Below are positions 3,729 to 45,299 of a stretch of DNA of 50,006 bases, piece by piece. The notes under the pieces were generated by a model. It was not told the origin of the DNA, ran no database searches, and saw nothing but the letters and a program-made list of their open reading frames with translations. Both the position numbers and the translations under genes were made by a program. The DNA comes from a virus (lineage: Duplodnaviria > Heunggongvirae > Uroviricota > Caudoviricetes): the IMG/VR virus record IMGVR_UViG_3300025697_002467; one strand, written 5' to 3'. How positions within the stretch are numbered: the stretch's first letter is position 1; each line of letters opens with the position of its first letter.

Positions 3729-3854
3729 CAACCTATTTATCTGGGAGGGGATGGATCATAGTGTCCATATTGAATCCTTTTAGGTTCTGTACTGGCTACA
3801 TTGAGGGTAATTGATACAGACATCTATGGATTTCTCAAAATGTTTGTTCATAAT

Positions 3855-4076: not shown

Positions 4077-4080
4077 AATT

Positions 4081-4767: not shown

Positions 4768-4778
4768 AATAGTTTTCC

Positions 4779-5099: not shown

Positions 5100-5728
5100 T
5101 TTGGGAATACTCCTTTGGCACATTCCCCACCATACCGCATGAAGGATTTTTTCAGGATATCGTCTTCAAATTCTTGGTCTCGTTCGTCAGATTGTCTCAG
5201 GGCATTGGAAATGGCAGTTGCAATCAACAAAAGTCTGCTCTGAGGTACCATTGGGGCACCGTAGTATTCAGAACGCGTGTAACACTCCGGTAGGGAAAAC
5301 ATACCCAGAGTGATTAGTTCTTCACGAGATACGTCAGGAGGAACTGTGATATAATTAATAATGTAGTTGTTAAGTGTAACTGTTCGGACTTCTGAACTAC
5401 CTTTAACATCAGTCTCCTCATCCCATTTGACCTCTAGGACAACTTTTTGAAGGACTGAATGCCGTCTGTCCAGTTCTCCGATCAATCCGTTGATCTTCAT
5501 TCTGGTTTTATTAGGTACGCTTTCCAGATCAAGGGTCTTGAAAGTGACTGTTTCATCCACATGGTAGGGTGGGTCACTTCGAGCAATATTATATTCTCCG
5601 ATAATACGGGCTTCAACGTGATACCCAGCGTTATGTTGAATCACTGTGCCTACAATTTTGATTTTCTGAAACGCGGGTTCTGTGAAGTCCCAGCGTCTAG
5701 TAGTCCCAGGTGCTTGAATTAGTCTCAT
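5096..5728 (-). CDS. hypothetical protein
   Basis: 210-aa ORF in minus-strand run. Confidence 0.75.
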   Translation of the reverse strand: MRLIQAPGTTRRWDFTEPAFQKIKIVGTVIQHNAGYHVEARIIGEYNIARSDPPYHVDETVTFKTLDLESVPNKTRMKINGLIGELDRRHSVLQKVVLEVKWDEETDVKGSSEVRTVTLNNYIINYITVPPDVSREELITLGMFSLPECYTRSEYYGAPMVPQSRLLLIATAISNALRQSDERDQEFEDDILKKSFMRYGGECAKGVFPK

Positions 5729-5729
5729 A

Positions 5730-5942
5730 TTAAAAACTTTCTGTTTTGAGTAAGTCGTATCTTGCTTTTTCCTTATTTAGTCTCGTAAATTCTACCCCTA
5801 TAGAATCCAATTCCTTCATAGCCAAATGATGAGGCATTTGAGACTCTTTAAGAGTTTTCACTCTTGATTCCAACTTTTCCATATCTTGTCTTAGGAAAAA
5901 GGCACAAGTAAATGTTTCGATTATTCCATCTGTTGTCATCAA
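5730..5942 (-). CDS. hypothetical protein
   Basis: 70-aa ORF with GGAGG RBS. Confidence 0.65.
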   Translation of the reverse strand: MMTTDGIIETFTCAFFLRQDMEKLESRVKTLKESQMPHHLAMKELDSIGVEFTRLNKEKARYDLLKTESF

Positions 5943-9478: not shown

Positions 9479-10552
9479 TTAAGATAATTTTTCCAAAACT
9501 TCGTCTGCTATCTCACGGGTTAATCCTGTATCGGTGTCCGTTAGGACAAGACGATCCATCAAATGGGCCATGTCAGTTTCGTCATCAAGGATAACAAAAC
9601 GGGTGTATTGAGGATGCTCTTTTAACCAAGCAGCAATTTCGTCTCCACGTTGTTTCCCATCCAGTTCCGGGGTCATACCGATCATATCACCGGTTATCCC
9701 ACGTCCAAAGAAAAAACTTAGTTCACGGCTGCTTTTCCTCCATGATGAAGAAATAACAATTTGAGCTCCTGTTTTATCAGTAATTTCATTAAGGAGTTTA
9801 ACACACTGAGGTGCCATCCAGTAAATGATTTTGAGCATTAATTCTTGGTCGTCCGGCTCCATGTCTACAAGACGTTCTGTGGGTTCGGGTTTCCCAAGCT
9901 TGGCCCATTCTTTTTCAGGTTCCCAATCATCCATAGGGTTCATCACCCCATCCATGTCCAAGAATATGATCGGAGGTGGTTCCATAACGCCCCTGAGCAG
10001 CCCTACAACCTCTGTTAAGGTGTCAAAGCGAGCTTCGTCATAGGACGAGAACAAATCGTGACTCTGAGGCTTGTCAGGCGTTCCGTTTATTTCGGATTTC
10101 AGTTTTTTATAAACGGTGGCCAGTCGGCCCATTCCTAAGATGGGGTCCCAACTATTCGGGATACGTTTGACTATCTCCTGTTTCGTCAGGTCCATCATCT
10201 TCTGTTTGACTATTTCAAAAGCTAACATTGTTTTCCCACTACCTTGAGTGAGAGCTAACATTTTTTTCCCTTCGTCTTTGATTTTTTCTTTTGTGTATGC
10301 ATTCATTAAGTCCTGATAAAACTCAGACAGGAATTTGATTGTATCAGGTTCAGGGAATAATGTGTGGTCAGAAAGTGGACAGGTTGAATCTGGAGTGTCA
10401 TTTTTGTAAGCTAGTTTGAGGAATTCCCCAGAAATTGGGTTATACATCCCTCGGGTGGATTTAGGGTGGTGGCAACAATCATGATGATTTTCACCCCTTC
10501 GGTTCCAAGGGCAGTCTTTACAAGATTCAATTTGAGCATATAGAGTTTTCAT
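9479..10552 (-). CDS. Cys-rich N-terminal domain fused to HAD_SAK_2 (Swiss-army-knife RNA-repair-like HAD) phosphatase
   Basis: IIFLDMDGVMN, IVISSSWR, RGDEI..WL, FVILDD, TGLT motifs. Confidence 0.85.
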   Translation of the reverse strand: MKTLYAQIESCKDCPWNRRGENHHDCCHHPKSTRGMYNPISGEFLKLAYKNDTPDSTCPLSDHTLFPEPDTIKFLSEFYQDLMNAYTKEKIKDEGKKMLALTQGSGKTMLAFEIVKQKMMDLTKQEIVKRIPNSWDPILGMGRLATVYKKLKSEINGTPDKPQSHDLFSSYDEARFDTLTEVVGLLRGVMEPPPIIFLDMDGVMNPMDDWEPEKEWAKLGKPEPTERLVDMEPDDQELMLKIIYWMAPQCVKLLNEITDKTGAQIVISSSWRKSSRELSFFFGRGITGDMIGMTPELDGKQRGDEIAAWLKEHPQYTRFVILDDETDMAHLMDRLVLTDTDTGLTREIADEVLEKLS

Positions 10553-23785: not shown

Positions 23786-24301
23786 ATGAAAAACAAAGAA
23801 GTTGAGACCCTTGTCAAGTTGTTAACCGAAAAAGGTTGGCATATCGTAACAATGGAGTCCTGTACAGGCGGTGCATTGGCCAATGCTATTACTAATGTTC
23901 CAGGTGCAAGTGCTGTCATCAAGGACTCTTTCATTACTTATTCTAATGAAGCCAAGATCAAATTGGGTGTTCCAGCAGAATTGATTGATAAATATACGGT
24001 CTATAGCCTTCCAGTTGCTGAAGCTATGGCTAAACAAGCTATAGCAAATTCAGTAACCGACCATCAGAAAATCGTAGGTGTTGGGATCACTGGTTCTCTC
24101 ACCCGAGAAGACCCGAACAACCCTAACTCAGAACCAGGTAAGGTTTATATTGCTATTTGTGTTTCGGGGAGTGCCAAAGGGAATGTTAATTTTTCCTATG
24201 GGATTATTGTCAATGGAGACGACAGGGAAAAAGGTAAGGAAGAAGTGCTGGAAGTTTTTCTTAAACTGACTTTGGATAGTGTTTGGATGAAATTATTATA
24301 A
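23786..24301 (+). CDS. pncC: CinA C-terminal domain / NMN deamidase (PncC-like)
   Basis: IVTMESCTGG.LA.AIT.VPGAS....FITYSNEAKIKLGV...VAEAMA...VGITG. Confidence 0.9.
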   Translation: MKNKEVETLVKLLTEKGWHIVTMESCTGGALANAITNVPGASAVIKDSFITYSNEAKIKLGVPAELIDKYTVYSLPVAEAMAKQAIANSVTDHQKIVGVGITGSLTREDPNNPNSEPGKVYIAICVSGSAKGNVNFSYGIIVNGDDREKGKEEVLEVFLKLTLDSVWMKLL

Positions 24302-24312
24302 AGGAGTGCCTG

Positions 24313-24831
24313 ATGGAAGAAATCATCTGTCAAAGATGTCAAACCTCTTTTAAATACAAATCCCTCGGTGGAAGAAAACGAAAGTTATGTCCGACATGTA
24401 TTAAGGAGAAACTAAACAAAGAACGGATATGTTGTATTTGTGGTGGAACATATTTAACAAAGGAACGGCTGTCTGATAAAAGATACCCTTTGACCACCTG
24501 TTCAGAATCGTGTGAACAGATACAACAAGAAAACAAAAAAATCAAAGATCAAGAGTACAATAAGAAGTGGTGGCGTGAAACGTATTACCCGAAAAACAAG
24601 GCTGCTATTGACAAAAAAAACAGTGATTGGGCTAAAAATAATAAAGACCGTGTTAATGAATTGGTCAGGTTAAGAAAAGCTGATAAATTAGTGATGGAAA
24701 CTCGGATTTGTAGCCATTGTGAGAAAGAATTTCAGGTTAATGAAAAAAATACGATAAAGAAATACTGTCAAATGAAATGTATGATTGCAGCAAGAAACAA
24801 ACGCTACTACAGAAAAAACAAGGAGATTTGA
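24313..24831 (+). CDS. multi-zinc-finger basic protein (AT-rich gene)
   Basis: repeated CxxC...CxxxC units; no HNH motif seen. Confidence 0.7.
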   Translation: MEEIICQRCQTSFKYKSLGGRKRKLCPTCIKEKLNKERICCICGGTYLTKERLSDKRYPLTTCSESCEQIQQENKKIKDQEYNKKWWRETYYPKNKAAIDKKNSDWAKNNKDRVNELVRLRKADKLVMETRICSHCEKEFQVNEKNTIKKYCQMKCMIAARNKRYYRKNKEI

Positions 24832-25296
24832 ATGGCTACGAGAAGCTGGAAAAGAGATGCTACTTTTATAAGAGTGTTTGGTGAGGGTGATTATGCAGAG
24901 AAAGCCTATGAATACCTTTACAAGGGACTTGTTAAAGTAGAGATCAGGGTGCCAAAAAAAGGAAGGAATTCTTATAGAGTTTATTTGGGTTGTAACAGTA
25001 CCACTTTTACATCCTGGAAAGAGGTTGTCTCAATATTACCCAAGGAATATAAAAAAGCTCTTTTGCAGATTGAAAGGACCAAGGAATATAAAAAACAAAA
25101 GCTGAAACAGATAAGGCTTCACCGGTTTAAAAAACGAGTCTATTCTAAAATAATAACCAAACAGTCTTTAGAGGGTTTATCCCAAAGAGAAACTACCCTT
25201 ATATTAAAAGATTTGGCAGCTTATAAAGAACAATTAGCTTGGAATCAGATCAATAGTGGGTACAACCCTAAAGTTGGAAACATGATTTTCGGATGA
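24832..25296 (+). CDS. basic hypothetical protein
   Basis: 154 aa directly following previous stop. Confidence 0.65.
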   Translation: MATRSWKRDATFIRVFGEGDYAEKAYEYLYKGLVKVEIRVPKKGRNSYRVYLGCNSTTFTSWKEVVSILPKEYKKALLQIERTKEYKKQKLKQIRLHRFKKRVYSKIITKQSLEGLSQRETTLILKDLAAYKEQLAWNQINSGYNPKVGNMIFG

Positions 25297-25303
25297 GGGG
25301 TTC

Positions 25304-25343
25304 TGGCTTAGTTTCTCTTTTTTGTGGGTTGTTGAAGTAAGAA
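25304..25343 (+). promoter_or_regulatory. repeated motif, copy P2
   Basis: TGGCTTAGTTT-CTCTTTT-TTGTGGGTTGTTG-AAGTAAGAA. Confidence 0.85.
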
Positions 25344-25356
25344 AAGGAGAACAGTC

Positions 25357-25548
25357 ATGAAAATGATTACCTTGATTTCAGTAGCAGATAAAAATAAAGC
25401 ACTTCGGGTACTTAAAGATACCATAGGTGTGACTACTCAGTATAGTAAATTTATCCTTCAAAGTCTCCCCAGATACAATGCTTATGTGGATGAAAAAACA
25501 TTGAGGGTTTTTGATAAAAACAATATCTATTACAAGATGATGGCTTAG
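25357..25548 (+). CDS. small hypothetical protein between two motif copies
   Basis: AGGAG RBS; ends ATG GCT TAG inside motif P3. Confidence 0.7.
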   Translation: MKMITLISVADKNKALRVLKDTIGVTTQYSKFILQSLPRYNAYVDEKTLRVFDKNNIYYKMMA

Positions 25549-25580
25549 TTTTGAAAAGTTGTGGGTTGTTGTAGTAAGAA
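25541..25580 (+). promoter_or_regulatory. repeated motif, copy P3
   Basis: TGGCTTAGTTT-TGAAAAG-TTGTGGGTTGTTG-TAGTAAGAA. Confidence 0.85.
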
Positions 25581-25606
25581 ACAACTGATAATTCAGGAGA
25601 AAAACA

Positions 25607-27559
25607 ATGAACACTACACAAATTGACCAATTAGCACTAAGAGTACGGGCTGCAAAAAATGCATATTACAATGGTAACCCTGTAATGTCCGATGCAGAAT
25701 ACGACACTCTGGAAGACGAACTCAGAAAAGCTGACTCGAATCACCCCGTCCTGAAAATGGTCGGTATGGCTCCAACAGGCGGTTCTTGGCCTAAAGCCAA
25801 ACACGAAATACCAATGGGTTCGTTGAACAAAGCTCAGGTCAAGGCTGAAGTTGAAAAATGGATCAAAGGGGCTGCTACGGCTGGTGAAATTGCAGTTATG
25901 GATAAACTTGATGGAGCTTCCATTGAGTTAACATACGAAAAACGTCATCTGGTTCGTGGTGCTACTCGTGGTGATGGTGATATCGGTCAGAACATAACCC
26001 GAAACATTCTGCTTATGCAGGGTGCTGTCAAGGTTTTGCCTTCTACCATTAACGGTCAACCAACCCCTGACAAAGTATATGTCCGTGGTGAAGTTATCGT
26101 ATCCAAATCCCTGTTTGCCAAATTCTTCAAAGGGGAGTCAAACCCTCGTAACACTGCAAACGGAACAATGACCCGTCAAACCAACCATGACAAATGTAAA
26201 CATCTGTCCATCATTGCTTATCAGTATATGCCTGAAGGTTATGGTATGGACACCAAAAAGGCCGAACTGACTACCTTGAAGGACATCGGTTTTATCACTC
26301 CCAGATGGTCAATCGTAAGCTCTCTGGCCGAAATCGAAGCTGTCTATCAGGATTACATTAACAGTATCCGTGACGGCCTTGATTACTTGATTGATGGTCT
26401 GGTTCTTGAAGTGAACAACAGAGACAAGAGAAATGACCTTGGTGACCTGAATGGTCGTCCTAAAGGTGCTATTGCTTACAAGTTCCCTCATGAGTCCAAG
26501 CCGACCCACCTGAAAGCTATCCGCTGGCAGGTTGGTAACTCTGGCCGAATCACACCGGTTGCTGAGTTTGATACCGTAAATCTGGCAGGAGCTAACATTT
26601 CTCAGGCTTCGTTGCATAACCTCAGTAACATTGCTGAAATGGTGAACGAAGTCAGACCTGGATGGAAAGAACTCTGTATTGATGATTCAATTTTGGTGAG
26701 TCGTAGAAATGACGTAATTCCCTACGTGGAGTCATTACTCTCCAGTGGTGATACGGCAGTACGTTTTAATATCCCGAAAAAATGCCCCGTATGTGGTGAA
26801 AAACTCAGCATGAATGGTGAGTACCTTGTCTGTACGAATTCAGATGAATGTGAAGCTCAGATTATCGGAATGCTGAAACGCTGGGTAACCAAACTGGATA
26901 TCAAACATATGGGTGAAGCTCTCTTGACAATGCTGATTGAAGACGGCCACATTGAAGACATTGCTGACCTCTACAGAGTTGACCCTATCAAGGTTTCAGT
27001 TATGACAATGAATGGCCGTATGGTTGGTGGAAGTGCCGACCGTGGCTTCCAGAACCTTCGTGCTAAAAAATCTATCCCTGTCGACCTCTTGGTAGGTTCC
27101 CTTGGAATCCCAATGATCGGTCGTAGTATGGCAAGAAAAATTAGTGATGCCGGATATGATACTCTCTCTAAAATGTATAAGGCTCAGATCGTTGATATTG
27201 CTCAAATCCCAGGTGTTGGCCAGACCAAAGCAGAATATTTCGTTCGTGGGTTTAGCAAAAGAATCGGTTTGATTGCCAAATTGATCCAACACCCCGACGA
27301 TGGTGGTGCTGGTATCACCATTAAGGTCACTAAGGGGCCACTGAAGGGCAAAACTTTCTGTATGACAGGCTTCCGTGACAGTGCCTTGGTGGATGCCATT
27401 GAAGGCTCAGGTGGGACGGTGAAATCTGGTGTCAGCAAAACTCTGGATTATTTGGTTGTTCAAGACGTAACCTCAACCAGTGGCAAAGCCAAGAAAGCTG
27501 CCAAGTACGGAACTGCTATCATCAGTATTGATGAAGCCAAAAAAATGGCTGGTATCTAA
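25607..27559 (+). CDS. ligA: NAD-dependent DNA ligase
   Basis: domain Ia YYNG.PVMSDAEYD; motif I KLDG; ATRGDG.G; RGE; DGLV; AIAYKF; WQVG.SG.ITPVA; C4 zinc finger; HhH; C-terminal BRCT (GKTFCMTG). Confidence 0.97.
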   Translation: MNTTQIDQLALRVRAAKNAYYNGNPVMSDAEYDTLEDELRKADSNHPVLKMVGMAPTGGSWPKAKHEIPMGSLNKAQVKAEVEKWIKGAATAGEIAVMDKLDGASIELTYEKRHLVRGATRGDGDIGQNITRNILLMQGAVKVLPSTINGQPTPDKVYVRGEVIVSKSLFAKFFKGESNPRNTANGTMTRQTNHDKCKHLSIIAYQYMPEGYGMDTKKAELTTLKDIGFITPRWSIVSSLAEIEAVYQDYINSIRDGLDYLIDGLVLEVNNRDKRNDLGDLNGRPKGAIAYKFPHESKPTHLKAIRWQVGNSGRITPVAEFDTVNLAGANISQASLHNLSNIAEMVNEVRPGWKELCIDDSILVSRRNDVIPYVESLLSSGDTAVRFNIPKKCPVCGEKLSMNGEYLVCTNSDECEAQIIGMLKRWVTKLDIKHMGEALLTMLIEDGHIEDIADLYRVDPIKVSVMTMNGRMVGGSADRGFQNLRAKKSIPVDLLVGSLGIPMIGRSMARKISDAGYDTLSKMYKAQIVDIAQIPGVGQTKAEYFVRGFSKRIGLIAKLIQHPDDGGAGITIKVTKGPLKGKTFCMTGFRDSALVDAIEGSGGTVKSGVSKTLDYLVVQDVTSTSGKAKKAAKYGTAIISIDEAKKMAGI

Positions 27560-34050: not shown

Positions 34051-34395
34051 ATGAGTTATTATGTATTGGATAGCAACCTGAAACTGAAGTTTGTGAGAAA
34101 TCTGTCTGTCGGATGGTTACAGCATTTGGTTAGGTTTGGATTTACTGTACAGCATTTGTCAGACAGTACCATAAATATCCTAAAAAACCCCTGTGATCAC
34201 AACGAGATTGGTGGATGCTCCAGTCACATAAATGCTTTGGAAGCAGTCCAAGAATATATAGTACCAGGTTCAAAAATTACCGTAGTTTACCCAGAAAATG
34301 ACTGGACTGTCGTTCGTACCATTTTTGAGAAAAAGGGTAAAAAAGAAATTATCGGCCATATGAAACCTGTATGGAAAACTAAGGAGACAGCATGA
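34051..34395 (+). CDS. hypothetical protein
   Basis: AGGAGG RBS; 114 aa. Confidence 0.65.
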   Translation: MSYYVLDSNLKLKFVRNLSVGWLQHLVRFGFTVQHLSDSTINILKNPCDHNEIGGCSSHINALEAVQEYIVPGSKITVVYPENDWTVVRTIFEKKGKKEIIGHMKPVWKTKETA

Positions 34396-34973
34396 AACTG
34401 AAAGACCGCCTGTTGGCATTCGTTGACGTTGAAACGACTGGGTTAGACCCAGAAAAACACGAGATGATCGAGTTTGCCTGTAAAACTTCTGACGGCAAGA
34501 AAATCCAGTTCAAGATCAAGCCTCAACACATCGAAACAGCTCACCCAAGAGCCTTGGAAGTGAACGGATACACCCCAGAACGATGGAAAGATGCCATAGA
34601 GCCTAAACAGGCTGCTGCCATTATCCAAGAGTGGTTGGAAGAGGTTATCATCATCGGTCAAAGCATTAAATTTGATGTGGGTTTTATCAAAGCCTTGTTG
34701 AAACGGGAAGGTGTTGAATATGATAACAATTTCCTGAGATATTCTGGAGACACTGTTACCTTGGCACTGGCACATTTAGTCCCCAAAGGACTCACGAACC
34801 TATCACTGAAATCTATCATGCAATTCCTTAATATGGAACCTGAGCCTGATGTCCATGAGGCTATGAATGGAGTGGACTGCTGCAAAGCTGTATGGGAAAA
34901 GTTAACAGATACAGGCTTCGATGCTTCCAAGTTCCACAAACATTACTCCGGCCCGGAGTACGATAAAGAGTAA
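34392..34973 (+). CDS. DEDDh 3'-5' exonuclease (DnaQ/RNase T-like)
   Basis: ExoI DVETTGLDP..HEMIEFA; ExoII FDVGFI; ExoIII HEAMNGV (H.A..D variant). Confidence 0.85.
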   Translation: MKLKDRLLAFVDVETTGLDPEKHEMIEFACKTSDGKKIQFKIKPQHIETAHPRALEVNGYTPERWKDAIEPKQAAAIIQEWLEEVIIIGQSIKFDVGFIKALLKREGVEYDNNFLRYSGDTVTLALAHLVPKGLTNLSLKSIMQFLNMEPEPDVHEAMNGVDCCKAVWEKLTDTGFDASKFHKHYSGPEYDKE

Positions 34974-35077: not shown

Positions 35078-37885
35078 ATGGATAAATATCTTCAACTCAC
35101 TCAAAACATTGCAGTTTTGTCTGGTCTGTTTCATGACTGGATTAAAGCCTCGGAGTTTTTTATAACAAAACTCCGAAAAAACGAAATTGTCCAAGACCCT
35201 CTAAGACATGATTGGCTATCTGCCGTGTTTTTTTCTTCTATAGTTGGGAAACAATCCGACCTTGAATGGCTTCAACAACTTATTGATGGGAATATCCCAT
35301 CAGAATTTAAAATACCTGACAACCCATTAGAAAATCTCCCAGACACAGCTGCCGTTATATTTTGGTTAATTTTAACGCATCACAGATTACCGATAATTGA
35401 TCGATATAGAGGAAAAAACTGTGGGGATTTTCGGAATCTTTTTAAGTTTATTTCGGCTGAGTGGGGATACCAACATCTTAAAACCCAAGGCTTAGAGAAA
35501 TGTTTTAAATTCCCTAAAGGATTACCAGACCATTCCCCTATTTTAGTACAACACATCCAGAAAGCAGCTCAGGATTTATATAATTCTATAGGTACGCTGG
35601 AGGAAGTAATCCAAAAAAGAAATCTTCGTACAATCCTGACTCAAGCTCGTATGGCTCTCATGTTAGCGGATCATTTCCATTCGTCCCAAGATGCTGACCC
35701 AAACTGGCCGAAGACATATCCTGTTTTTGCTAATACGTACCGAGACACTGGTAAATTAAAGCAACGGCTTGATGAACACCTTGTCGGAGTAGCTAATCAG
35801 GCAGCCTTCAATGTGAAATTTCTGCATGAGCTTGTGGACATTAATCACAAACACCAAGCCTACCCGTCACTCGTTATTAAAAGCCCCGCTGAATTTCAAT
35901 GGCAAGAAGATGCTGTCACAGTTATCCGAAACCAGTATCAAAAAGGAGGCTTTTTTGGGGTCAGTATTGCCAGTACAGGAACAGGTAAAACATTAGGTAA
36001 TGCTAAAATTATGCAAGCTCTATCGAAAGACGGGAAAGGACTTCATTATACATCAGCCCTTGGACTCCGAACCTTAACCCTACAAACTGGATTGGAATAC
36101 CGTGACCGGATTGGATTAACGGATAAAGATATGGCCGTTCTGATTGGTTCTACTGACAACCTGAATCCATTCTATGCAGGTTCAGAATCTGAAGACTGTT
36201 TATTAGATAATGAATTGATTGGGGGCTTGGCAGAAGCAGGGTTATCCCCAGTATTACGAGATGAAAAGAGCTGTCGGTTTTTCCACACTCCTGTGGTGGT
36301 TTGTACTATTGACCATCTAGTTGGGGCTACGGAAACTAGAAAGGGTGGCCGGTATATCCTACCTCTCCTTCGATTGATGTCTTCTGACCTAGTTATTGAT
36401 GAAATAGATAATTTCTCAAATGGAGACTCCGTTGTTATTGGCCATTTAATCCATCTTGCTGGGATGTTAGGAAGAAAAGTCCTCATTTCCTCAGCCACAA
36501 TTCCTCCTGATATGGCAGAAGGGTATTTTAATGCTTATCAGGCCGGTTGGGAAGAATTTTGTAAAAACCAATCTGAAAACCCTGCTGTTAGTTGTTTCTG
36601 GACAGATGAGTTTGGAGCAACACTTGAATCTGTGGAGACCCTGACTGAGTATCGGAAATACCATCAAGAATTTGTTGAACAGCGTGTCATAGAATTAGCT
36701 AAGAAACCAATCAGACACCGAGTTAATATAGGGGAAATCCAACCTGTTAAAAATGAAAGCCGTAAAAAAACAAAAAACAGATTTTTTAAATCCATGACAG
36801 ATTGTTGTTTCGAATTACACAAGGACAATTACACTAAAGATGCCAAAACAGGTAAATTAGTGAGTATTGGTGTTATCAGAGTCAATACTATAAATACTTG
36901 TGTATCACTTACAAAACATCTCTTGAAAACCAAACTTCCACCTAATATCGATATCCGAACAATGGCCTACCACAGCCAACAAGTTATGGCCTTGCGTAAT
37001 GTTCAGGAGACTCATTTAGATAACGTGTTGAAAAGACACAAAGGTTCTCAAGCAATTTTTGATAACCCCATCATTAGAGAGCATGTAGATAATAGCTCGG
37101 CTGATCATGTGATATTTATTCTTGTAGCTACTTCAATCGAAGAAGTTGGTAGAGATCATGATTTTGATTGGGGTGTAATCGAACCATCCTCATTTCGGGC
37201 AATTATTCAGCTAATAGGACGTATATTACGACATAGGATGAAAAATGTTACACAACCTAATGTAACGATTATGCAGTATAACTTAAAAGGCTTGCTTGGA
37301 GACCGACTCCCTTTCAAACTCCCAGGCTATGAATCTACTCAGCATGTTTTCAATTCTCATGATATTACTAACCTCATTGATAAGGAGACTATCTGTGAAG
37401 GTTTGAATGCTACACCAAGAATTACCAAGAACACCCCCTTAGACCCCCAAAACAAGCTGGTAGACCTCGAACACACAATCACTCATGAAACCCTATCTGA
37501 TTACACCCAACAAGGGCCAGAGAGTCTTGCAGGCTGGGTTAAGACGTTTTGGTGGATGACTGCCACACCTCAAAAAATGAATAAGTTTCGGTCAGATTAT
37601 CCCTGCCTTCGAGTCTTCTTGATCCCCACGGATGATGGTCCTGTTTTTTTTGAAAAAACAAAAAGACATGGGATTCGAAAAATCGAATCCTTGTATGGAG
37701 TTAGGGTAAACAAGTCTGATGATGAAATGCCTTTGAAAAGATTATGGCTTCATAGAGATTTTGAAACTATTATTGATGGTTTGGACCTTATGATACACGG
37801 AGAAATCAACCTACCAACGTATGGTAAGGATAAAAATGAAATTCGTTATGAGTATTCTGACCAGTTTGGGTTAATTGCAAAATAG
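35078..37885 (+). CDS. cas3: type I-F Cas3 nuclease-helicase lacking the N-terminal Cas2 domain
   Basis: starts at the HD domain (GLFHDWIKAS, DPLRHDW, MLADH); Walker A ASTGTGKT; LGLRTLTLQTG; LVIDEID; SSAT; YHSQ; EVGRDHDFDW; QLIGRILRHR. Confidence 0.95.
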   Translation: MDKYLQLTQNIAVLSGLFHDWIKASEFFITKLRKNEIVQDPLRHDWLSAVFFSSIVGKQSDLEWLQQLIDGNIPSEFKIPDNPLENLPDTAAVIFWLILTHHRLPIIDRYRGKNCGDFRNLFKFISAEWGYQHLKTQGLEKCFKFPKGLPDHSPILVQHIQKAAQDLYNSIGTLEEVIQKRNLRTILTQARMALMLADHFHSSQDADPNWPKTYPVFANTYRDTGKLKQRLDEHLVGVANQAAFNVKFLHELVDINHKHQAYPSLVIKSPAEFQWQEDAVTVIRNQYQKGGFFGVSIASTGTGKTLGNAKIMQALSKDGKGLHYTSALGLRTLTLQTGLEYRDRIGLTDKDMAVLIGSTDNLNPFYAGSESEDCLLDNELIGGLAEAGLSPVLRDEKSCRFFHTPVVVCTIDHLVGATETRKGGRYILPLLRLMSSDLVIDEIDNFSNGDSVVIGHLIHLAGMLGRKVLISSATIPPDMAEGYFNAYQAGWEEFCKNQSENPAVSCFWTDEFGATLESVETLTEYRKYHQEFVEQRVIELAKKPIRHRVNIGEIQPVKNESRKKTKNRFFKSMTDCCFELHKDNYTKDAKTGKLVSIGVIRVNTINTCVSLTKHLLKTKLPPNIDIRTMAYHSQQVMALRNVQETHLDNVLKRHKGSQAIFDNPIIREHVDNSSADHVIFILVATSIEEVGRDHDFDWGVIEPSSFRAIIQLIGRILRHRMKNVTQPNVTIMQYNLKGLLGDRLPFKLPGYESTQHVFNSHDITNLIDKETICEGLNATPRITKNTPLDPQNKLVDLEHTITHETLSDYTQQGPESLAGWVKTFWWMTATPQKMNKFRSDYPCLRVFLIPTDDGPVFFEKTKRHGIRKIESLYGVRVNKSDDEMPLKRLWLHRDFETIIDGLDLMIHGEINLPTYGKDKNEIRYEYSDQFGLIAK

Positions 37886-37898
37886 AAAGGATTTGAAA

Positions 37899-39134
37899 AT
37901 GGATATTGAAATCCAGAAGTTTTTTGATGAACGTATCAAGAAAAAAATTAAGCATGGAAGTCAAAATATACCTGATGAACAGATGCCTGATTTTGAGAAC
38001 AAAATCAGGGAGAATTTTGTTTTGGAAACGTGGTTGCCAATAGCTGCGGAAAAAGCAAAATTCGTTACTCTCCGAACCCACTCAGGGAAAATGACTCACC
38101 CTAGTGCCCGGACATCTTCGTTCGTAGCCAAGAAACCCCAAGAAAATGATGGTTATCTTCGAACAGGGAATGTTTCTGTAGAAACAGATATGTGTGGAGG
38201 TGGGGCAGCCAGCCTAATCTATTATGCCTTCATGAACCTCAAGCTGACTGATGGGCAAACCATTTTAAGCCACCTACAAAAGTCTACTGACTATATCAAA
38301 CAGCAATTCGATATCCCTACAATGTCGTTCGATGACATCCAAAAAGGTTTTCTGGCTGTTTTTGATGAAACAGATGAAGACATTTATACTGATGGTTTAC
38401 TCCGAGAAGTATTTTTCCCAGTTGACGATGGTTATCATCTTCTGTCCATTACGAGCCCTTCTGGGATCATTTTTGCCCAAACTGACAAAATTGATAAAAT
38501 CCGTTTCTCAGAAGAAACTAAAGAAATCCGAAAACTTAAACGGCAGGGAAAACCGTCAGATAAAGGTTTTACCGAATTTTTTGACCTGACCATTGCCAAC
38601 TATGGAGGTTCTCAACCTCAGAACATCGGAGCTCTCAACAGCAAGTACAAAAAAGTATACTTGTTATCAGCTTCCCCACCTCAGTTTAAAAAACGGAAAA
38701 CCAAGCTACCCAAAACGAACTTTATGTCTATTCTGTGGGTAAAAGGCTTTCAGAGGTCTTTCCAGAAATTTCATACTCAGATAGCTATTAAAAAACAAAA
38801 CCAACATAGCCGTCTCCGACGTGATAACCATATTCGGTTCATTGTGGACCAAATCTCTAAACAGATGTGGGCAGTTCGACAGACTGAGCCTGGATGGTCT
38901 AATTCAGATACCTATAGATCATTGCCCAGACATCAAAAAATCTGGTTGGATCAACAGTATGCTGGCAACCGCTATGACAATCCCGATTGGATGGGCAAAG
39001 TAATTGCTGATATTAGCAGATGGTTCATCAACTCTTATAACACCCTGCTCGGTTCTGATGCAGAGTTGCTTGACGATACTGATTTGAGACATGTGGAAAC
39101 TATCATTCAAGAATGTGAGGAGGCCATCCGATGA
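37899..39134 (+). CDS. csy1: type I-F Cascade large subunit Csy1/Cas8f
   Basis: THSGKMTHPSA, GYLRTGNV, FFPVDDGYHLLS, NYGGSQPQNIGALNS, WSNS...LP.HQKIWLD; start re-called at MDIEIQ. Confidence 0.93.
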   Translation: MDIEIQKFFDERIKKKIKHGSQNIPDEQMPDFENKIRENFVLETWLPIAAEKAKFVTLRTHSGKMTHPSARTSSFVAKKPQENDGYLRTGNVSVETDMCGGGAASLIYYAFMNLKLTDGQTILSHLQKSTDYIKQQFDIPTMSFDDIQKGFLAVFDETDEDIYTDGLLREVFFPVDDGYHLLSITSPSGIIFAQTDKIDKIRFSEETKEIRKLKRQGKPSDKGFTEFFDLTIANYGGSQPQNIGALNSKYKKVYLLSASPPQFKKRKTKLPKTNFMSILWVKGFQRSFQKFHTQIAIKKQNQHSRLRRDNHIRFIVDQISKQMWAVRQTEPGWSNSDTYRSLPRHQKIWLDQQYAGNRYDNPDWMGKVIADISRWFINSYNTLLGSDAELLDDTDLRHVETIIQECEEAIR

Positions 39135-40024
39135 AAGACATTTTACTGATACCAAAGATACAAGCTGAAAGTGCCAATGCTCATTCCAGTCCATACTCCG
39201 GCGGATTTCCTGCTATGACGGCTTGGATGGGTTTTGCTCATTTGCTTGAAAGAAAACTTCAACAGACTTCTTATGCAGGGATCAAGTTTAAAAGTGTTGG
39301 GGTGGTGAGTCATGATTTTACTTTGAGAAATTTTAAGCACCCCAAGGATTTCTGTTCCGCTATTATTGGCAGACGTTTACCCCCTCAAAACCCTAGTCAA
39401 AAAGGGGCACCTCTGATTCCCGACTTAACCTGTGACCTAACGGTTTCTATAGTGTTGGAATGTTCAGGGATGGGGATGATAGATCATGAAGATTTCACCA
39501 ACACTATTAGGAAAATCATTTATAGTCTTAAATTGGCTAGTGGTGATATTGTAAACCTCCAAAAACCAGAAGTTCTCACCGTCCATGATGAGAAAAGCCA
39601 AAAAACCCTGCTCCGTCGGCTTATGCCAGGTAACTGTCTGATTGAACGTCGGGATCTGATACAGAAAGCTATGGAAAACGGCCAAGATGCCCTTGAAGCT
39701 GTTCTTTCTCATACTTGTATAGAACACTCATATAATGAGGTAACAGATAAGTGGGAAAGTAAACGGAAAACATCAGGTTGGCTGGTTCCAATTACTACAG
39801 GTTATCAAGGACTCACTAAATTGGGTCCTGCTGAAAACACACGAGATGCAAACGATACCCCACACCGATTTGCTGAAGCTATTGTAACATTATGTGAATT
39901 TATCATGCCATATAAAATTGTCGAACTTGATAACATGCTATGGCACTATCATTCTGATATGAACAAAGACCTTTATCTTTGTCAACAGAATAAACCTACA
40001 TACTCAGGAGAAAACTATGTCTAA
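39131..40024 (+). CDS. csy2: type I-F Csy2/Cas5f
   Basis: IQAESANA.SSPYS.GFPAMTAWMGFAH.LERKL; GWLVPITTGYQGL; HRFAE; L..MLWHY. Confidence 0.95.
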   Translation: MKDILLIPKIQAESANAHSSPYSGGFPAMTAWMGFAHLLERKLQQTSYAGIKFKSVGVVSHDFTLRNFKHPKDFCSAIIGRRLPPQNPSQKGAPLIPDLTCDLTVSIVLECSGMGMIDHEDFTNTIRKIIYSLKLASGDIVNLQKPEVLTVHDEKSQKTLLRRLMPGNCLIERRDLIQKAMENGQDALEAVLSHTCIEHSYNEVTDKWESKRKTSGWLVPITTGYQGLTKLGPAENTRDANDTPHRFAEAIVTLCEFIMPYKIVELDNMLWHYHSDMNKDLYLCQQNKPTYSGENYV

Positions 40025-41048
40025 AGTCAAAATCCCCGGGAATTTGTCATTCCGCAAGCGTTTAGAACCCTCAAAAGGAATCCTTTTTGGAACTTCCTGG
40101 GACAAACGCCGAGAAATTTGTGTCCCTTTAACCAATGAACTTATCACTGTCAGAGGTGGTAAAACTCACCACCAAAATTTCCCTGACAATCGTGAGAAAG
40201 GTGAGTCTGAGTTGGGTGATGCCAACATCCACACTCTTGATTCCTGTTTGTTGTCCAAGGATCACGATACCGTGCGTTTAACTTACACCTTGAAAGTTCT
40301 CAACGGTGTTGCCGGTATGGAAAGCTGTAATGACAAAGAATTCCTTAACCTGTTCGAGGAATGCTTAAAAGAAAAACTGGATACTGTTGGAGTGAAAGTT
40401 CTGGCCCATCGTTATGCCACCAACATTGCCAATGGTCGTCCTTTGTGGAAAAACCGTGAAGCTACCCATATTGAAACGGTCGTTCGTTGCCGTGGCAGTG
40501 AGACAGAGTGGGTTTTTGACGGTAAAGAAATCCCATTGCATACTTTCGATTATGAAAGTTCTGCATTGACAGGGCTAACTCAAGTCATTGAAGATGCTTT
40601 GTTAGGTAACACTGACCTTATCATTCTGGAAGTGTCCTCATACGCTTTGGTCGGTCAAGGTCAGCCGGTATTCCCCAGTCAAGAATTCATTCAGGATCAA
40701 GGGAATGGTTTCAGCTCGAAGAAAGACGGGAAGAAAAGCAAAGTTTTATACTTCCCCGAAGATGTAGCCGGCCTGCACCCGCAAAAAATCGGTAATGCCA
40801 TCCGTACTATTGATTCATGGTATGGAGACGGTGTCTCTCCGATTGCTGTGGAACCTTACGGTGCCCAGCCTACTTTCAATACCCATCACCGTAGCCCTTA
40901 CGAACAAAAGGACTTTTATTCCATGTTGGTGAAATTTGTGAACAAGGAAGAATTGACCGAATCCGAAGTTCATTACTTCATGGCCATGCTGGTCAAAGGT
41001 GGTGTGTTTGGTGCAGCCAAATCCAAGCCTAAACCCAAATCCAAGTAG
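40017..41048 (+). CDS. csy3: type I-F Csy3/Cas7f
   Basis: LSF.KRL.PS; RYATNIANGRPLWKNR; VFPSQEF; KSKVLY; HPQKIGNAIRTIDSWY; IAVEPYG; MAMLVKGGVFG. Confidence 0.97.
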   Translation: MSKVKIPGNLSFRKRLEPSKGILFGTSWDKRREICVPLTNELITVRGGKTHHQNFPDNREKGESELGDANIHTLDSCLLSKDHDTVRLTYTLKVLNGVAGMESCNDKEFLNLFEECLKEKLDTVGVKVLAHRYATNIANGRPLWKNREATHIETVVRCRGSETEWVFDGKEIPLHTFDYESSALTGLTQVIEDALLGNTDLIILEVSSYALVGQGQPVFPSQEFIQDQGNGFSSKKDGKKSKVLYFPEDVAGLHPQKIGNAIRTIDSWYGDGVSPIAVEPYGAQPTFNTHHRSPYEQKDFYSMLVKFVNKEELTESEVHYFMAMLVKGGVFGAAKSKPKPKSK

Positions 41049-41060
41049 GAGAAAAAGAAC

Positions 41061-41630
41061 ATGAAATACTACCAAGAAATTACGTTGATCCCTGACCCTG
41101 TTGGGATGCCCCTGAGTTATTTACAGCAACGTCTGTTCTATCAGGTTCATGCAGCCTTGGCTCGTGAACCTGGGGATAATTCCGTGGGTATATCTTTCCC
41201 TGATTACGATGGGGAAGGATGCCAACTGGGAAATAAAATAAGGTTGTTAGCTCCGACTGAGGATATTTTAAAAAACCTTCAACTTCGACACCTACTTCTC
41301 AGGTTAAGTGATTATTCTCATTTGTCAGATATCCGACAGGTGCCTGAGAAAATTGAAAGCTATGCTTTTTTTCGTCGGGTTCAACCGAAAACCAGCCTTG
41401 GCAGCATAGCTCGTCGAAAAGCTAGACGTGAAGGGATTACAGTTGATGAAGCCTTGAATCTTTTAGGACCACCTAAAAAAACACCCAAACTCCCCGCTGT
41501 TTCAATGGAGAGTAAAAGTTCAGGTCAACAATATCCTTTGTTTGTTTCCCGAGTTTTATCTGATGAGCCAGCTACGGGGTCATACAGTACGTATGGATTG
41601 AGTTCCACAGGTACTGTACCTTTATTTTAA
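41061..41630 (+). CDS. cas6f: type I-F Cas6f/Csy4 crRNA endoribonuclease
   Basis: MKYYQEITL.PD; QVH.AL; GISFPDY; LG.KIRL; RRVQPK; S.SSGQ.YPLF; YSTYGLS..TVPLF. Confidence 0.95.
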   Translation: MKYYQEITLIPDPVGMPLSYLQQRLFYQVHAALAREPGDNSVGISFPDYDGEGCQLGNKIRLLAPTEDILKNLQLRHLLLRLSDYSHLSDIRQVPEKIESYAFFRRVQPKTSLGSIARRKARREGITVDEALNLLGPPKKTPKLPAVSMESKSSGQQYPLFVSRVLSDEPATGSYSTYGLSSTGTVPLF

Positions 41631-41748
41631 TCAAAACAAAAAACCTAAGTGGTTATGGCTACTTAGGTTTTTTGCTTTTAACATTGGTAAAAACATGTAA
41701 TCATGTATAGGTCTTTGAAAACTCAATAGTTTTATGATTTATGCTCCT
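41631..41748 (+). promoter_or_regulatory. CRISPR leader
   Basis: AT-rich 118 bp between cas6f and first repeat; IHF-like CTTTGAAAACTCAATAGTTTTA at 41713-41734. Confidence 0.8.
41637..41674 (+). terminator. 14-bp perfect inverted repeat in the leader (cas-operon terminator or leader motif)
   Basis: CAAAAAACCTAAGT-ggttatggct-ACTTAGGTTTTTTG. Confidence 0.7.
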
Positions 41749-43680
41749 GTGAACTGCCGAGTAGGCAGCTTAGAATAACAGTTTGTACCGGTATTGTTTG
41801 GCAGATGTGTGAACTGCCGAGTAGGCAGCTTAGAATCTGCTCTGGAAATTTTGAGTATCCATACTGCCGTGAACTGCCGAGTAGGCAGCTTAGAATTGTT
41901 TGATTTTCTGACTCATTCCACCGAACGGGTGAACTGCCGAGTAGGCAGCTTAGAATTGTTTTGTCGAACCGACATTGATTTTTGAAAAGTGAACTGCCGA
42001 GTAGGCAGCTTAGAATTGGAGGTCAGAAAGGAAACGGTAACTATGTCTAGTTAACTGCCGAGTAGGCAGCTTAGAATTCAGACAATAATTCAAGAAAGTA
42101 TCAATTAAAGTGAACTGCCGAGTAGGCAGCTTAGAATTGGAAAACCATAGAATCAGAGAAGCTGGATTCGTGAACTGCCGAGTAGGCAGCTTAGAATACA
42201 TGTGTCGTAACCGTGTTCACGAAAAATTCGTGAACTGCCGAATAGGCAGCTTAGAATGGGTAACGATGACGTTGGAAAATGTAGACAGAGGTACACTGCC
42301 GAACAGGCAGCTTAGAATGACAGGTCGCATCGTGAATTTCTGGATCTGAAGTTAACTGCCGAGTAGGCAGCTTAGAATATTGATATTGATGCTAATAACG
42401 GCAGTGATGAGTGAACTGCTGAATAAGCAGCTTAGAATACAAGTCACAATATTGGATTAGCAAGCACATAGTTAACTGCCGAATAGGTAGTTTAGAATTT
42501 GCTTTTTTGTGACTGTACCTAGAACCTGTGGTTAACTGCCGAGTAGGCAGCTTAGAATCGAAGAACACGTCGGATCTCCCTGAAAATATCGTGAACTGCC
42601 GAACAGGCAGCTTAGAATAGTTCATCACACAAGGCCATTAGCTCGTCCACCGTTAACTGCTGAACAGGTAGTTTAGAATACAGGGAATCTGCGGACTTTG
42701 CCAACCTTGATGTAAACTGCCGAATAGGCAGCTTAGAATTGGTCAACCGAACTACACAAAATGTCTTTTGCATGAACTGCCGAGTAGGTAGTTTAGAATT
42801 GTCCTGAAATGCCTGTTGTCACAAATGAGATGTTAACTGCCGAATAGGCAGTTTAGAATTATGTGGGATCAAAGCTCTCCCAAGGGTGGGTGTTAACTGC
42901 CGAGCAGGCAGCTTAGAATCATGTATAAGTTGCTCTCAATCCACAATTTAGGTGAACTGCTGGATAAGTAGTTTAGAATAATTTAATCAGGTCATTCATA
43001 ACGGCCATTTTAGTTAACTGCCGAATAGGCAGCTTAGAATTCTTGTTGGATGCAAGTGTCTTATCAACATTTGTTAACTGCCGAATAGGCAGCTTAGAAT
43101 TGAGACAGATCCCAAAGCTGAAATCGAATCCAGTGAACTGCCGAACAGGCAGCTTAGAATAAGGAACAGAAGCAGCTAGTTCAATTGGTACTGTTAACTG
43201 CCGAACAGACAGCTTAGAATGAAATTCCTTCATCCACATATTCGGCAACTATGTGAACTGCCGAACAGGTAGTTTAGAATTTTATGGAACTCACTACGAC
43301 CGCCAGACCGGATCGTGAGCTGCCGAATAGGTAGTTTAGAATCTATTGACACCAAAGCAGATTGAATCCGCGGGAACTGCCGAATAGGCAGCTTAGAATG
43401 ATGAAACTCTATGACGAGGAACGAGTGGAGGGTGAACTGCTGAATAAGCAGCTTAGAATACAATCGAATCAATGCCGTCTAAAAGCTCCGCAGGAACTGC
43501 TGGATAAGCAGCTTAGAGTTCGTATGGAGTAACCGTGAAAAACTGCCGGACAGGTAGTTTAGAATTTAGAAATAAGGGTGTGGCATTGAAGCCGAGTGAA
43601 AACTGCCGAATAGGCAGCTTAGAATAAGCACATCAGCTATGTTAAACCGCACTGCGTGAACTGCTGAATAAGTAGCTTAG
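41749..43680 (+). CRISPR. type I-F CRISPR array, 33 repeats / 32 spacers
   Basis: 28-bp consensus GTGAACTGCCGAGTAGGCAGCTTAGAAT (CTGCC/GGCAG stem); spacers mostly 32 bp (range about 18-34); uniform at leader end, heterogeneous distally; last repeat truncated at GCTTAG. Confidence 0.99.
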
Positions 43681-43717
43681 CTTAGTTTCCAAAAGTTGTG
43701 GGTTGTTGGGGTAGAAG
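43680..43717 (+). promoter_or_regulatory. repeated motif, copy P7, fused to the last CRISPR repeat
   Basis: GCTTAGTTT-CCAAAAG-TTGTGGGTTGTTG-GGGTAGAA. Confidence 0.85.
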
Positions 43718-43751: not shown

Positions 43752-45299
43752 ATGGCCAAAACAATCATTGATAGTGTTACTTTAAATTTTACTGACCTTA
43801 CCGGTGCCAAGACAGGCTGTACCAAACTCGGTTCCAACAAATTCTGGAAGGGCTGGGTTGAAGACCTTGGAGACGGCACAGGCAATTTCGAGTGTTGCTG
43901 GGGTGCTACAGGCACACCAGGTAAAGACACCGGAAGCAAACGAGGTATTGACCTTGATGATGCCCAAACCTTGCTCAATAAGAAAGTTAAATCAAAAGTA
44001 AAAAAAGGTTATACCCTCCTTGAAGTTCGTTCCGATGAGGAAGAGGTGGCCAAGGCTGCTGACAACGGTGTAAACCTCACTGCTGACAAGAAAGCCCCCA
44101 AAAAGAAAAAAGCTGTCAAGAAATCAACTTTCAATCCTGCTATCGGAAACTTGCTGGCTACCATCTATAATGAAACCAGCCGTGTTGTCACAGCAGGTCT
44201 TTCCTCTCAGGCTGGCTCATCTGCTGATAACCCTATAGGTAACCTGTCTGATGCCCAGTTAGACGTAGGTGGTGGCATTTTGGACGATATAGAGGCATTC
44301 CTGACACAGGAACTTGGCCATGAAGACACAGCTAACCGTGTTCAAACCTTGGCTTTGTCTGCTGATGGTGTACCTTCTGATGGTGTCATTGATTTGACTA
44401 ATCAGTACATGTCGAATGTTCCGAGAGAAATTGACCGTTCACAAAGAGGTAGAGGCAACCTGCATCGTCTGGTTATTTCATCCTTTGAACGCTTGGAAGA
44501 GCAACGAAAGTTTTTACAGTTGCTTCGTGATGCTCACCTGACCAAAGGTGTCTTTAAAGCTGCTGCTAATGCTTCTACAGGTGGTAAAGAACAGATTTGG
44601 TATGAAGGCCTCAATTGCCTTATCGAATTGTGTGAGTCTGGATCAGCCGAATTCAAGAAAGTGTCAGACATATTCAACAACAACCAATCTCGTAAAAACC
44701 AGAACTGGTTCAGTGGTGGACGTTCTACTCTCCGCTTGAAACGGATTTTCAAGTTCACTCGTAATGGTACAGACAAACAGTTTGCCAAGTATGCTAAAGA
44801 GATGGCTTCCAAGCCCAATGCAGTCGGCAATATTTTTGCTTGGCACGGCACACGTACTGAGAACCTTCTCGGTATCAGTAAAACTGGCCTCTTGATGCCT
44901 GAAAACTTGCCTCGTGGTATCCACGTATCAGGTAAAGCTTTCGGCAAAGGGATTTATCACGCCCCTGATATTTCAAAAATAAGAACCATTCACGGTGTGC
45001 AAACAGATGGTACGAATGGAGCTTTGAAGTCTATGAACTATACCTCTTCAAGGGGAGCTTATTACGGTTCAAATAACACTTCAAATTCGGCCTTCATGTA
45101 CCTGCAGGAAGTTGCTTTAGGTAACGGTGATGTTCATACAGCCCCTTGCTGGGACAAACACCGTCCGAATAACTACCCGAAGAACGATTTCATTTATGCA
45201 GCAGCCGGCGGTTGTAGCACGTTATCCCATGATGAATTGGTAACTTTTTCTCAGGATGCTCAAATATTCCGCTATTTGCTTGAGATTGAAGCAAGATAA
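43752..45299 (+). CDS. WGR + PARP-regulatory + PARP catalytic domain ADP-ribosyltransferase
   Basis: WGR: SNKFW...WGATG; PARP_reg: IGNLSDAQL..G..IL...LTNQYMSNVP; catalytic H-Y-E: AWHGTR, GKAFGKGIY, KSMNY, EVALG, HDELVTF..Q..RYL. Confidence 0.92.
   Translation: MAKTIIDSVTLNFTDLTGAKTGCTKLGSNKFWKGWVEDLGDGTGNFECCWGATGTPGKDTGSKRGIDLDDAQTLLNKKVKSKVKKGYTLLEVRSDEEEVAKAADNGVNLTADKKAPKKKKAVKKSTFNPAIGNLLATIYNETSRVVTAGLSSQAGSSADNPIGNLSDAQLDVGGGILDDIEAFLTQELGHEDTANRVQTLALSADGVPSDGVIDLTNQYMSNVPREIDRSQRGRGNLHRLVISSFERLEEQRKFLQLLRDAHLTKGVFKAAANASTGGKEQIWYEGLNCLIELCESGSAEFKKVSDIFNNNQSRKNQNWFSGGRSTLRLKRIFKFTRNGTDKQFAKYAKEMASKPNAVGNIFAWHGTRTENLLGISKTGLLMPENLPRGIHVSGKAFGKGIYHAPDISKIRTIHGVQTDGTNGALKSMNYTSSRGAYYGSNNTSNSAFMYLQEVALGNGDVHTAPCWDKHRPNNYPKNDFIYAAAGGCSTLSHDELVTFSQDAQIFRYLLEIEAR

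Follow-up and report, generated by a model that had tools for sequence, protein, structure and literature searches.

Spacer 15 of a type I-F CRISPR array on a putative large phage can be traced securely, by its sequence, to the coding region for a conserved helix of HsdS, the specificity subunit of type I restriction-modification (R-M) systems. The array lies in a stretch of viral DNA of 50,006 nucleotides (IMG/VR record IMGVR_UViG_3300025697_002467), here called the window, directly after a set of cas genes that covers interference but not adaptation. Near-matching hsdS genes carry a flank compatible with the type I-F PAM, CC, on the strand that corresponds to the spacer. The explanation that we favor, with somewhat better than even confidence, is that spacer 15 genuinely belongs to an interference-only type I-F system carried by a phage and was copied from a CC-flanked hsdS helix region.

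Gene content of the type I-F locus

The gene order on the plus strand is cas3-csy1-csy2-csy3-cas6f, followed by the leader and then by the array.

35078..37885, + strand: cas3, 935 aa, HD nuclease and SF2 helicase (Pfam Cas3-like_C_2, E = 5e-23)
37875..39134, + strand: csy1 (cas8f) (PF09611 Cas_Csy1, E = 9e-87)
39131..40024, + strand: csy2 (cas5f) (PF09614 Cas_Csy2, E = 1e-77)
40017..41048, + strand: csy3 (cas7f) (PF09615 Cas_Csy3, E = 5e-91)
41061..41630, + strand: cas6f (csy4), crRNA-processing endoribonuclease (PF09618 Cas_Csy4, E = 5e-45)
41631..41748, + strand: leader, AT-rich, 118 nt, between cas6f and repeat 1, read directly
41749..43683, + strand: CRISPR array, 33 repeats of 28 nt and 32 spacers mostly of 32 nt
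42591..42618, + strand: repeat 15, source of the 8-nt 5' handle of crRNA 15; two loop substitutions relative to the consensus; hairpin of -8.9 kcal/mol
42619..42651, + strand: spacer 15, 33 nt, antisense to the hsdS conserved-helix codons VDELMALCDEL
42652..42679, + strand: repeat 16, source of the 3' hairpin of crRNA 15; six substitutions; stem with G-U pairs, -6.0 kcal/mol

Type I-F systems normally have a Cas2 domain fused to the N terminus of Cas3. The Cas3 protein encoded in the window aligned with the Cas2/3 protein of Pseudomonas aeruginosa (PDB 8flj and 5b7i; E = 7e-146) and keeps the FHD, HHRLP, GxGKT (Walker A), and DExD motifs in that alignment. The alignment begins at query residue 11, which corresponds to residue 115 of the Cas2/3 chain, and runs only from there onward; the Cas2 domain is therefore missing, and the Cas2-3 N terminus used as a tblastn query had no match in the window. 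No Pfam match to Cas1 was found in the open reading frames upstream of the operon, and the best tblastn hit of an Acinetobacter Cas1f query in the 50-kb window had an E value of 0.04. Judged by gene content, the locus is interference-competent, with Csy1-4 and a Cas3 carrying HD and helicase motifs, and within the 50-kb window the CRISPR system is interference-only, having no adaptation genes.

None of 2,946 relatives was more than 44% identical to Csy3, and the cassette would therefore be old in its lineage rather than recently captured; the spacers are presumably younger than the capture of the cassette. The named relatives are mostly from gammaproteobacterial metagenome-assembled genomes (Methylobacter, Methylococcaceae, and Thiotrichales), and no Csy3 relative was confirmed in IMG/VR. 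The ESM Atlas model of Csy3 was of poor quality.

The carrier element

Most of the roughly 50 open reading frames scanned in the window belong to no family (ORFans). Those with a family match encode an NAD-dependent ligase, an HNH endonuclease, a DnaQ-like exonuclease, CinA/PncC, a HAD_SAK_2 protein, and a PARP-like protein, and the few matches to PHROG families comprise the ligase, the HNH endonuclease, the exonuclease, and three families of no known function. No virion, plasmid, or cellular housekeeping gene was seen among the scanned open reading frames, a tRNA scan of the window found none, and a 21.7-kb part of the window, compared with GenBank phages by megablast, had no match. The initial annotation had described a phage-like element carrying a type I-F system. 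The assignment of csy1-4 by Pfam and the motifs kept in Cas3 bear out the system, and the predominance of ORFans with few PHROG matches agrees with the carrier, in a window that has no virion gene.

An identical Csy3 was encoded on 12 contigs, including some from Ace Lake samples. Identical csy3 and ligase genes occurred on contigs of the 50-200 kb and 0.2-1 Mb size classes and in JGI samples 3300031227 and 3300025669, which were taken from the anoxic lower zone of Ace Lake, Antarctica (0.8-0.1 um fraction; PMC7416419 supplement). The element is most probably a large phage, an identification that is indirect, given the lack of a virion gene in the window. A 528-kb huge phage has been described from the same lake (cluster 24; Panwar et al. 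2020, PMC7416419), also from the anoxic zone and also with a CRISPR-Cas system lacking cas1, cas2, and cas4. Identity with that phage was rejected, as its GC content is 0.56 and its system is reported as type I-C, in contrast to a GC content of 0.41 and a type I-F system here.

Structure and stability of the array

The repeats near the leader are identical, whereas the distal ones are heterogeneous or degenerate. The plus strand was established as the crRNA sense because the array lies downstream of cas6f with its identical repeats on the leader side and its degenerate ones distal. A consensus scan of the leader found no sigma-70 promoter. The repeat consensus forms a hairpin of the type I-F kind ending CTTAGAAT (the CTTAGAA- terminus) that folds at -8.9 kcal/mol, and the repeats match those of I-F arrays on gammaproteobacterial plasmids in PLSDB (Photobacterium, Acinetobacter, Legionella, and Vibrio). 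Past number 8 the repeats are a mosaic of I-F variants in which the hairpin is mostly preserved, a pattern that would fit prolonged residence as well as a swapping of units with bacterial arrays. Repeat 16, being a weak variant, was counted against the favored explanation.

A second Ace Lake assembly (L020) has the same spacers 1-21, and an ENA assembly (L021) has the same spacers 1-4. Between these assemblies the leader end of the array shows no turnover, as expected without cas1, and the array could be a relic.

The mosaic of repeats raises the possibility that the unit containing spacer 15 entered through recombination with a bacterial I-F array, in which it recorded immunity against a mobile element carrying R-M genes, and was never selected in the phage. 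Repeat 10, identical at 26/26 positions to the repeats of Serratia plasmid arrays, and the absence of adaptation genes from the window point the same way, as does another Ace Lake huge phage that has spacers and repeats in common with bacterial contigs (PMC7416419). Such an import is nevertheless quite improbable, given Cas proteins highly diverged from all bacterial ones and the failure to find bacterial contigs with any of these spacers, in a search with limited coverage of the home habitat.

Origin of spacer 15 in hsdS

The only open minus-strand frame in the reverse complement of spacer 15 encodes VDELMALCDE followed by the CT of the next codon. A codon-degenerate DNA pattern for VDELMALCDE(L), using the leucine codon families of spacer 15 itself, had 19 matches: 12 in metagenome contigs (JGI/other) and 7 in GTDB contigs sampled at one genome per species. 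The same pattern had 0 matches in IMG/VR. At about 52 bits, it was expected to match by chance about 3e-4 times in the 596-Gb genome collection that contained the 7 matches. All 19 sites lie in the context ..RIVAKVDELMALCDELE.., also written ..LPPLxEQxRIVAKVDELMALCDELE.., and each of the five surrounding open reading frames tested was assigned to PF01420 Methylase_S (HsdS), with E values from 5e-21 to 1e-37. Within HsdS, the motif falls in the conserved helix at the center or in the one at the C terminus, sometimes in both, and the matches span Clostridia, Bacteroidales, Desulfovibrionaceae, and Rhizobium.

At the nucleotide level, the hsdS gene of Caproicibacter fermentans (L014) matches spacer 15 at 31/33 positions, with mismatches at crRNA positions 15 and 21 and a CC PAM. 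A metagenome contig (L004) also has an hsdS match of 31/33, with mismatches at positions 15 and 27 and a CA PAM, and a third hsdS gene (L009) matches at 30/33 with a CC PAM. The seed (positions 1-8) is perfect at all three sites, and the last of these genes contains a second site with five mismatches, a CC PAM, and an intact seed. The type I-F PAM CC is carried by 15 of the 19 near-matching hsdS sites; those 15 sites continue as CTG-GAR, which puts 5'-CC beside the protospacer on the spacer-sense strand.

Spacer 15 had been placed in the initial annotation at 42619-42651, translated in the frame given above, ascribed to hsdS, and predicted to have a CC flank if the target continued as CTG-GAA. 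The position, the spacer number, and the frame are as described, the source agrees with the HsdS context of 19/19 sites and the PF01420 assignment of 5/5 open reading frames, and the predicted flank follows from the CTG-GAR continuation at 15/19 sites. The motif had also been linked to many proteobacterial HsdS subunits: its assignment to HsdS stands, but it is not specific to Proteobacteria, as Clostridia and Bacteroidales match too. The proposed check, an hsdS match with a CC PAM, was answered by a match of 31/33 with CC, but not by one with 0-1 mismatch.

If the resemblance to hsdS were due to chance and spacer 15 unrelated to the gene, the failure to find an exact protospacer in the collections searched would be unsurprising. 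That view has to contend with an 11-residue exact peptide match to HsdS, with nucleotide matches of 31/33 that occur only in hsdS, and with 19 pattern matches where fewer than 0.001 were expected. Chance is effectively refuted by the pattern matches, the HsdS context, and the PF01420 assignments, and is left with a very small probability.

Search for the protospacer

Targets were called at 0-1 mismatch, the threshold used in PMC7162821. No protospacer of spacer 15 was found at this threshold in IMG/VR, GenBank phages, PLSDB, or metagenome and genome contigs. Coverage of the home habitat by these collections is uncertain because the scans missed both the array of the window itself and its copy in the second Ace Lake assembly, and the absence of an exact protospacer is therefore weak evidence. 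Near matches to spacer 15 included none from Ace Lake. A version of the spacer with N at every sixth position had 0 matches in IMG/VR, BLASTn against GenBank phages returned chance-level matches only, and no match in IMG/VR, GenBank phages, or PLSDB exceeded 24/28.

Among 50,697 phage records, 18 had an hsdS homologue, and these 18 included several fragments or a bacterial record; among 72,556 PLSDB plasmid records, one query found 384, of which 215 were conjugative or mobilizable. Chromosomes hold far more hsdS genes than plasmids do. A bacterial replicon is favored over a phage as the source of spacer 15 because hsdS is rare in phages and commoner on plasmids and chromosomes.

With the collections searched, 30 of the 32 spacers of the array were unidentifiable. 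BLASTn of the array against GenBank phages and PLSDB gave no full-length match for any spacer, the phage matches being at chance level and the PLSDB matches repeat-to-repeat, and no full-length spacer had a self-target in the window at up to 7 mismatches. Spacer 25 had a 23/23 match (E = 5e-3) to a gene annotated "recombinase family protein" on a Brevibacillus plasmid, which would fit a mobile-element gene. Degenerate patterns for spacers 14 and 25 had 0 matches in IMG/VR. A methyltransferase origin considered for spacer 14 is not supported by PLSDB, which yielded only gapped, chance-level matches at E = 3 in genes annotated as integrases.

Possible targets and roles of spacer 15

Under the favored explanation, the transcript of the array would be processed by Cas6f and crRNA 15 loaded into the Csy1-4 complex, where it would base-pair with any hsdS gene having the conserved helix stretch, on the coding strand; Cas3 would then be recruited and degrade the replicon bearing that gene. 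Expression, interference, the replicon hit, and a benefit to the phage are all steps that we infer. The most likely source and target would be bacterial DNA encountered in infected cells, on a chromosome, a genomic island, or a plasmid, and not a rival phage. As adaptation genes are missing from the window, spacer 15 was probably acquired in trans, with Cas1-Cas2/3 supplied by the I-F system of a host, or else exchanged with an array of the host. Several readings of what the spacer is for were weighed; the probabilities given to them overlap, and the first two below shade into each other.

The protospacer may have been on a plasmid, an integrative element, a satellite, or a prophage with type I R-M cargo, in which case the spacer would serve to exclude or destroy a competitor within a host that both occupy. 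The preferred targets of CRISPR arrays carried by mobile elements are other such elements (PMC9071438). The plasmid counts given above show hsdS to be common on such replicons, the best PLSDB match of spacer 15 (24/28) is itself an hsdS gene, on a 680-kb Pseudoalteromonas plasmid, and the recombinase gene matched by spacer 25 is typical of mobile elements. This role is possible but falls short of even odds: there was no significant full-length spacer match in PLSDB, GenBank phages, or IMG/VR, and the numerical preponderance of chromosomal hsdS tells against a plasmid source.

Alternatively, the phage may, as the initial annotation proposed, aim Cas3 at the type I R-M locus of its host, on the chromosome or in a defense island; the spacer would then be kept by selection. 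The target of spacer 15 is a defense gene, and the guide falls in the best-conserved part of hsdS, which often occurs twice per gene and is common to several phyla, so that one guide could reach many alleles. The CRISPR system of phage ICP1 against PLE is a precedent for such use by a phage, and targeting of host genes by huge phages is documented (PMC7162821). Against this stands the lack of a 0-1-mismatch match to spacer 15 in any host genome among the collections searched. A type I R-M enzyme is made in advance and attacks entering DNA before a phage Cas complex exists. Destroying hsdS cannot rescue the infecting genome, because the HsdRMS enzyme is already present at entry; the strategy would work better if the R-M genes were on an inducible island, a satellite, or a plasmid. 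In addition, a relation to R-M was seen for only 1 of the 32 spacers, no turnover of spacers is seen between the assemblies that were compared, and there is ascertainment bias, in that without the true target only spacers from highly conserved motifs can be recognized. Counter-defense of this kind is accordingly judged unlikely. In a broader form, the spacer would be an anti-restriction or host-genome-demolition guide effective against many type I R-M loci, chromosomal or on inducible islands, because it falls in the one part of hsdS whose nucleotide sequence is conserved across phyla and because the wobble positions of the hsdS codons partly coincide with the unpaired positions at every sixth nucleotide of the crRNA; spacers against R-M genes would then recur in phage arrays. 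This is a distinctly unlikely extension.

Spacer 15 may also be a neutral bystander, one of the CC-adjacent fragments of host DNA captured during lytic infection and kept because they cost a lytic phage nothing. The mean GC content of the spacers (0.42) is near that of the element (0.41) and fits DNA from the same cellular environment, most spacers (30/32) were unidentifiable with the collections searched, and CC arises from ordinary CTG-GAR codon usage. If so, spacer 15 is recognizable only because hsdS helices are so conserved. Its own GC content of 0.52 departs from this pattern, and the flanking hairpins are kept by G-U pairs and compensatory changes, which suggests continued selection on processing, though not on spacer 15 specifically. 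We regard a purely neutral origin as rather doubtful.

Phage-encoded CRISPR-Cas systems attack rival phages, a defense island (PLE, in the case of ICP1), and some host housekeeping genes. If the target of spacer 15 is the R-M locus of the host itself, CRISPR counter-defense would extend to the most widespread bacterial immune system, and how destruction of a gene helps against an enzyme already made would become a new question. If it is a plasmid or an island, spacer 15 would be a further instance of mobile elements in conflict. The literature searched yielded no report of a phage spacer against an R-M gene.

Comparison with known systems

The type I-F CRISPR-Cas system of Vibrio phage ICP1 reportedly targets the PLE anti-phage island, as Seed et al. 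are said to have found in 2013. The system described here is likewise phage-borne and of type I-F, with a Csy complex and Cas3, and the use of CRISPR against an anti-phage element of the host is a parallel that holds here as an idea only. The two systems differ in that ICP1 has retained cas1 and a cas2-3 fusion and carries out its own spacer acquisition, and in that its spacers match PLE exactly and their interference has been demonstrated experimentally. PLE, moreover, must replicate after infection, so that destruction of its DNA is effective, whereas the enzyme of a constitutive R-M system is there when the phage DNA enters. At close range the two are unrelated in repeats and Cas proteins, and 21.7 kb of the window had no megablast match to GenBank phages.

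In comparison with canonical I-F1 systems (P. aeruginosa PA14, PDB 5b7i/8flj; Pectobacterium), Csy1-4 and Cas3 are homologous, and the 28-nt hairpin repeats ending in CTTAGAA- and the spacers of 32-33 nt are alike; the CC flanks at 15 of the 19 near-matching hsdS sites would be compatible with the same PAM. The locus in the window differs in having no cas1 there, no Cas2 domain, a phage-like carrier, and a Csy3 that shares at most 44% identity with its relatives. Arrays borne on plasmids (Pinilla-Redondo et al. 2021, PMC9071438) resemble this one as CRISPR systems of mobile elements and hit cargo or backbone genes of others; here the carrier is phage-like, and a plasmid protospacer was not found in PLSDB.

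A further parallel is found in the huge phages of Al-Shayeb et al. 2020 (PMC7162821), in which CRISPR loci without cas1 and cas2 and with spacers targeting host chromosomes have been documented. Those systems lack Cas1, Cas2, and Cas4 and retain interference genes, as is the case here within the window. Some of their spacers target host genes for sigma-70 or glycyl-tRNA synthetase, or competing phages, and the mechanism proposed uses Cas proteins of a host with similar repeats (PMC7162821). An R-M target was not reported there, and the word "restriction" has 0 occurrences in that paper (PMC7162821). The present system is set apart by being of type I-F with a Cas3 stripped of its Cas2 domain. 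It falls into the class of phage CRISPR-Cas systems already published as adaptation-less, except for its long array, which has 33 repeats, whereas the huge-phage arrays are compact, with a median of six (PMC7162821).

Repeat mosaic and spacer origins

Past the eighth repeat, the type I-F array is a mosaic of I-F repeat variants that do not follow one another in sequential order.

42230-43683: repeat variants past the 8th, with GTG or GTT starts, GAGTA, GAATA, or GAACA loops, compensatory CTGCT..AGCAG changes, and G-U wobbles

Repeats in Serratia marcescens plasmid arrays are identical to repeat 10 over 26/26 positions, which, together with the mosaic, suggests either that bacterial arrays have swapped repeat-spacer units with this one or that the repeats have drifted for a long time under hairpin selection. 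A serine-recombinase-type gene is supported as the probable source of spacer 25 (43221-43252) because 23/23 consecutive bases of the spacer match a gene annotated as encoding a "recombinase family protein" on a Brevibacillus laterosporus plasmid (E value, 5e-3). For spacer 14 (42559-42590), BLASTn searches against PLSDB returned only gapped matches with an E value of 3, to genes annotated as encoding site-specific integrases on enterobacterial conjugative plasmids, and the codon-degenerate pattern had 0 matches in IMG/VR; the methyltransferase origin proposed for this spacer was not confirmed by either search.

Conservation of the array and relation to Ace Lake phages

Spacers 1 to 21 of the window array (41749-43683) were found to be identical in L020 (3657-4891), a second assembly from Ace Lake, Antarctica (sample 3300031227, November 2013), and spacers 1 to 4 were identical in L021 (1991-2202), an ENA assembly. 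No leader-end turnover was seen among the assemblies compared, a pattern that is consistent with the absence of cas1.

The published Ace Lake huge phage (528 kb; GC, 0.56), which was reported to carry a type I-C system (PMC7416419), was rejected as the source of the window, whose GC is 0.41 and whose system is type I-F. The same study lists a circular Caudovirales genome of 185,273 bp (GC, 0.40) from the same depths, assigned to cluster 113 (PMC7416419, Table S1). It is possible that this genome represents the element described here, but genes identical to those of the window are also present on a contig of the 0.2- to 1-Mb class.

Genes flanking the CRISPR locus and elsewhere in the window

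The CRISPR locus is bordered by the following genes, the second of which starts about 70 nt past the last repeat.

34392-34973: DnaQ/RNase_T-type DEDDh exonuclease directly upstream of cas3 (PF00929, E value of 1e-17; phrog_192, DNA polymerase exonuclease subunit)
43752-45299: 515-aa protein combining a WGR domain with PARP regulatory and catalytic domains

Exonucleases of the DnaQ/RNase_T type occur in some type I-E systems as fusions with Cas2 and act in prespacer trimming; the exonuclease gene found here may simply be a replication gene.

Other genes in the window included the following.

9479-10552: 357-aa protein with a HAD_SAK_2 domain (E value, 8.5e-30), also matching phrog_1818
23786-27559, all on one strand: CinA/PncC-type protein (PF02464), HNH endonuclease PHROG match, and 650-aa NAD-dependent DNA ligase

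HAD_SAK_2 is a domain of "Swiss Army Knife" RNA repair proteins.

Among the metagenome contigs with HsdS peptide-pattern matches, L005 (Ga0180433_10014909) encodes at 3827-5806 a 660-aa HsdS carrying a GIY-YIG nuclease domain (PF01541, E value of 2e-14, residues 342 to 412) inserted between its two conserved helices.
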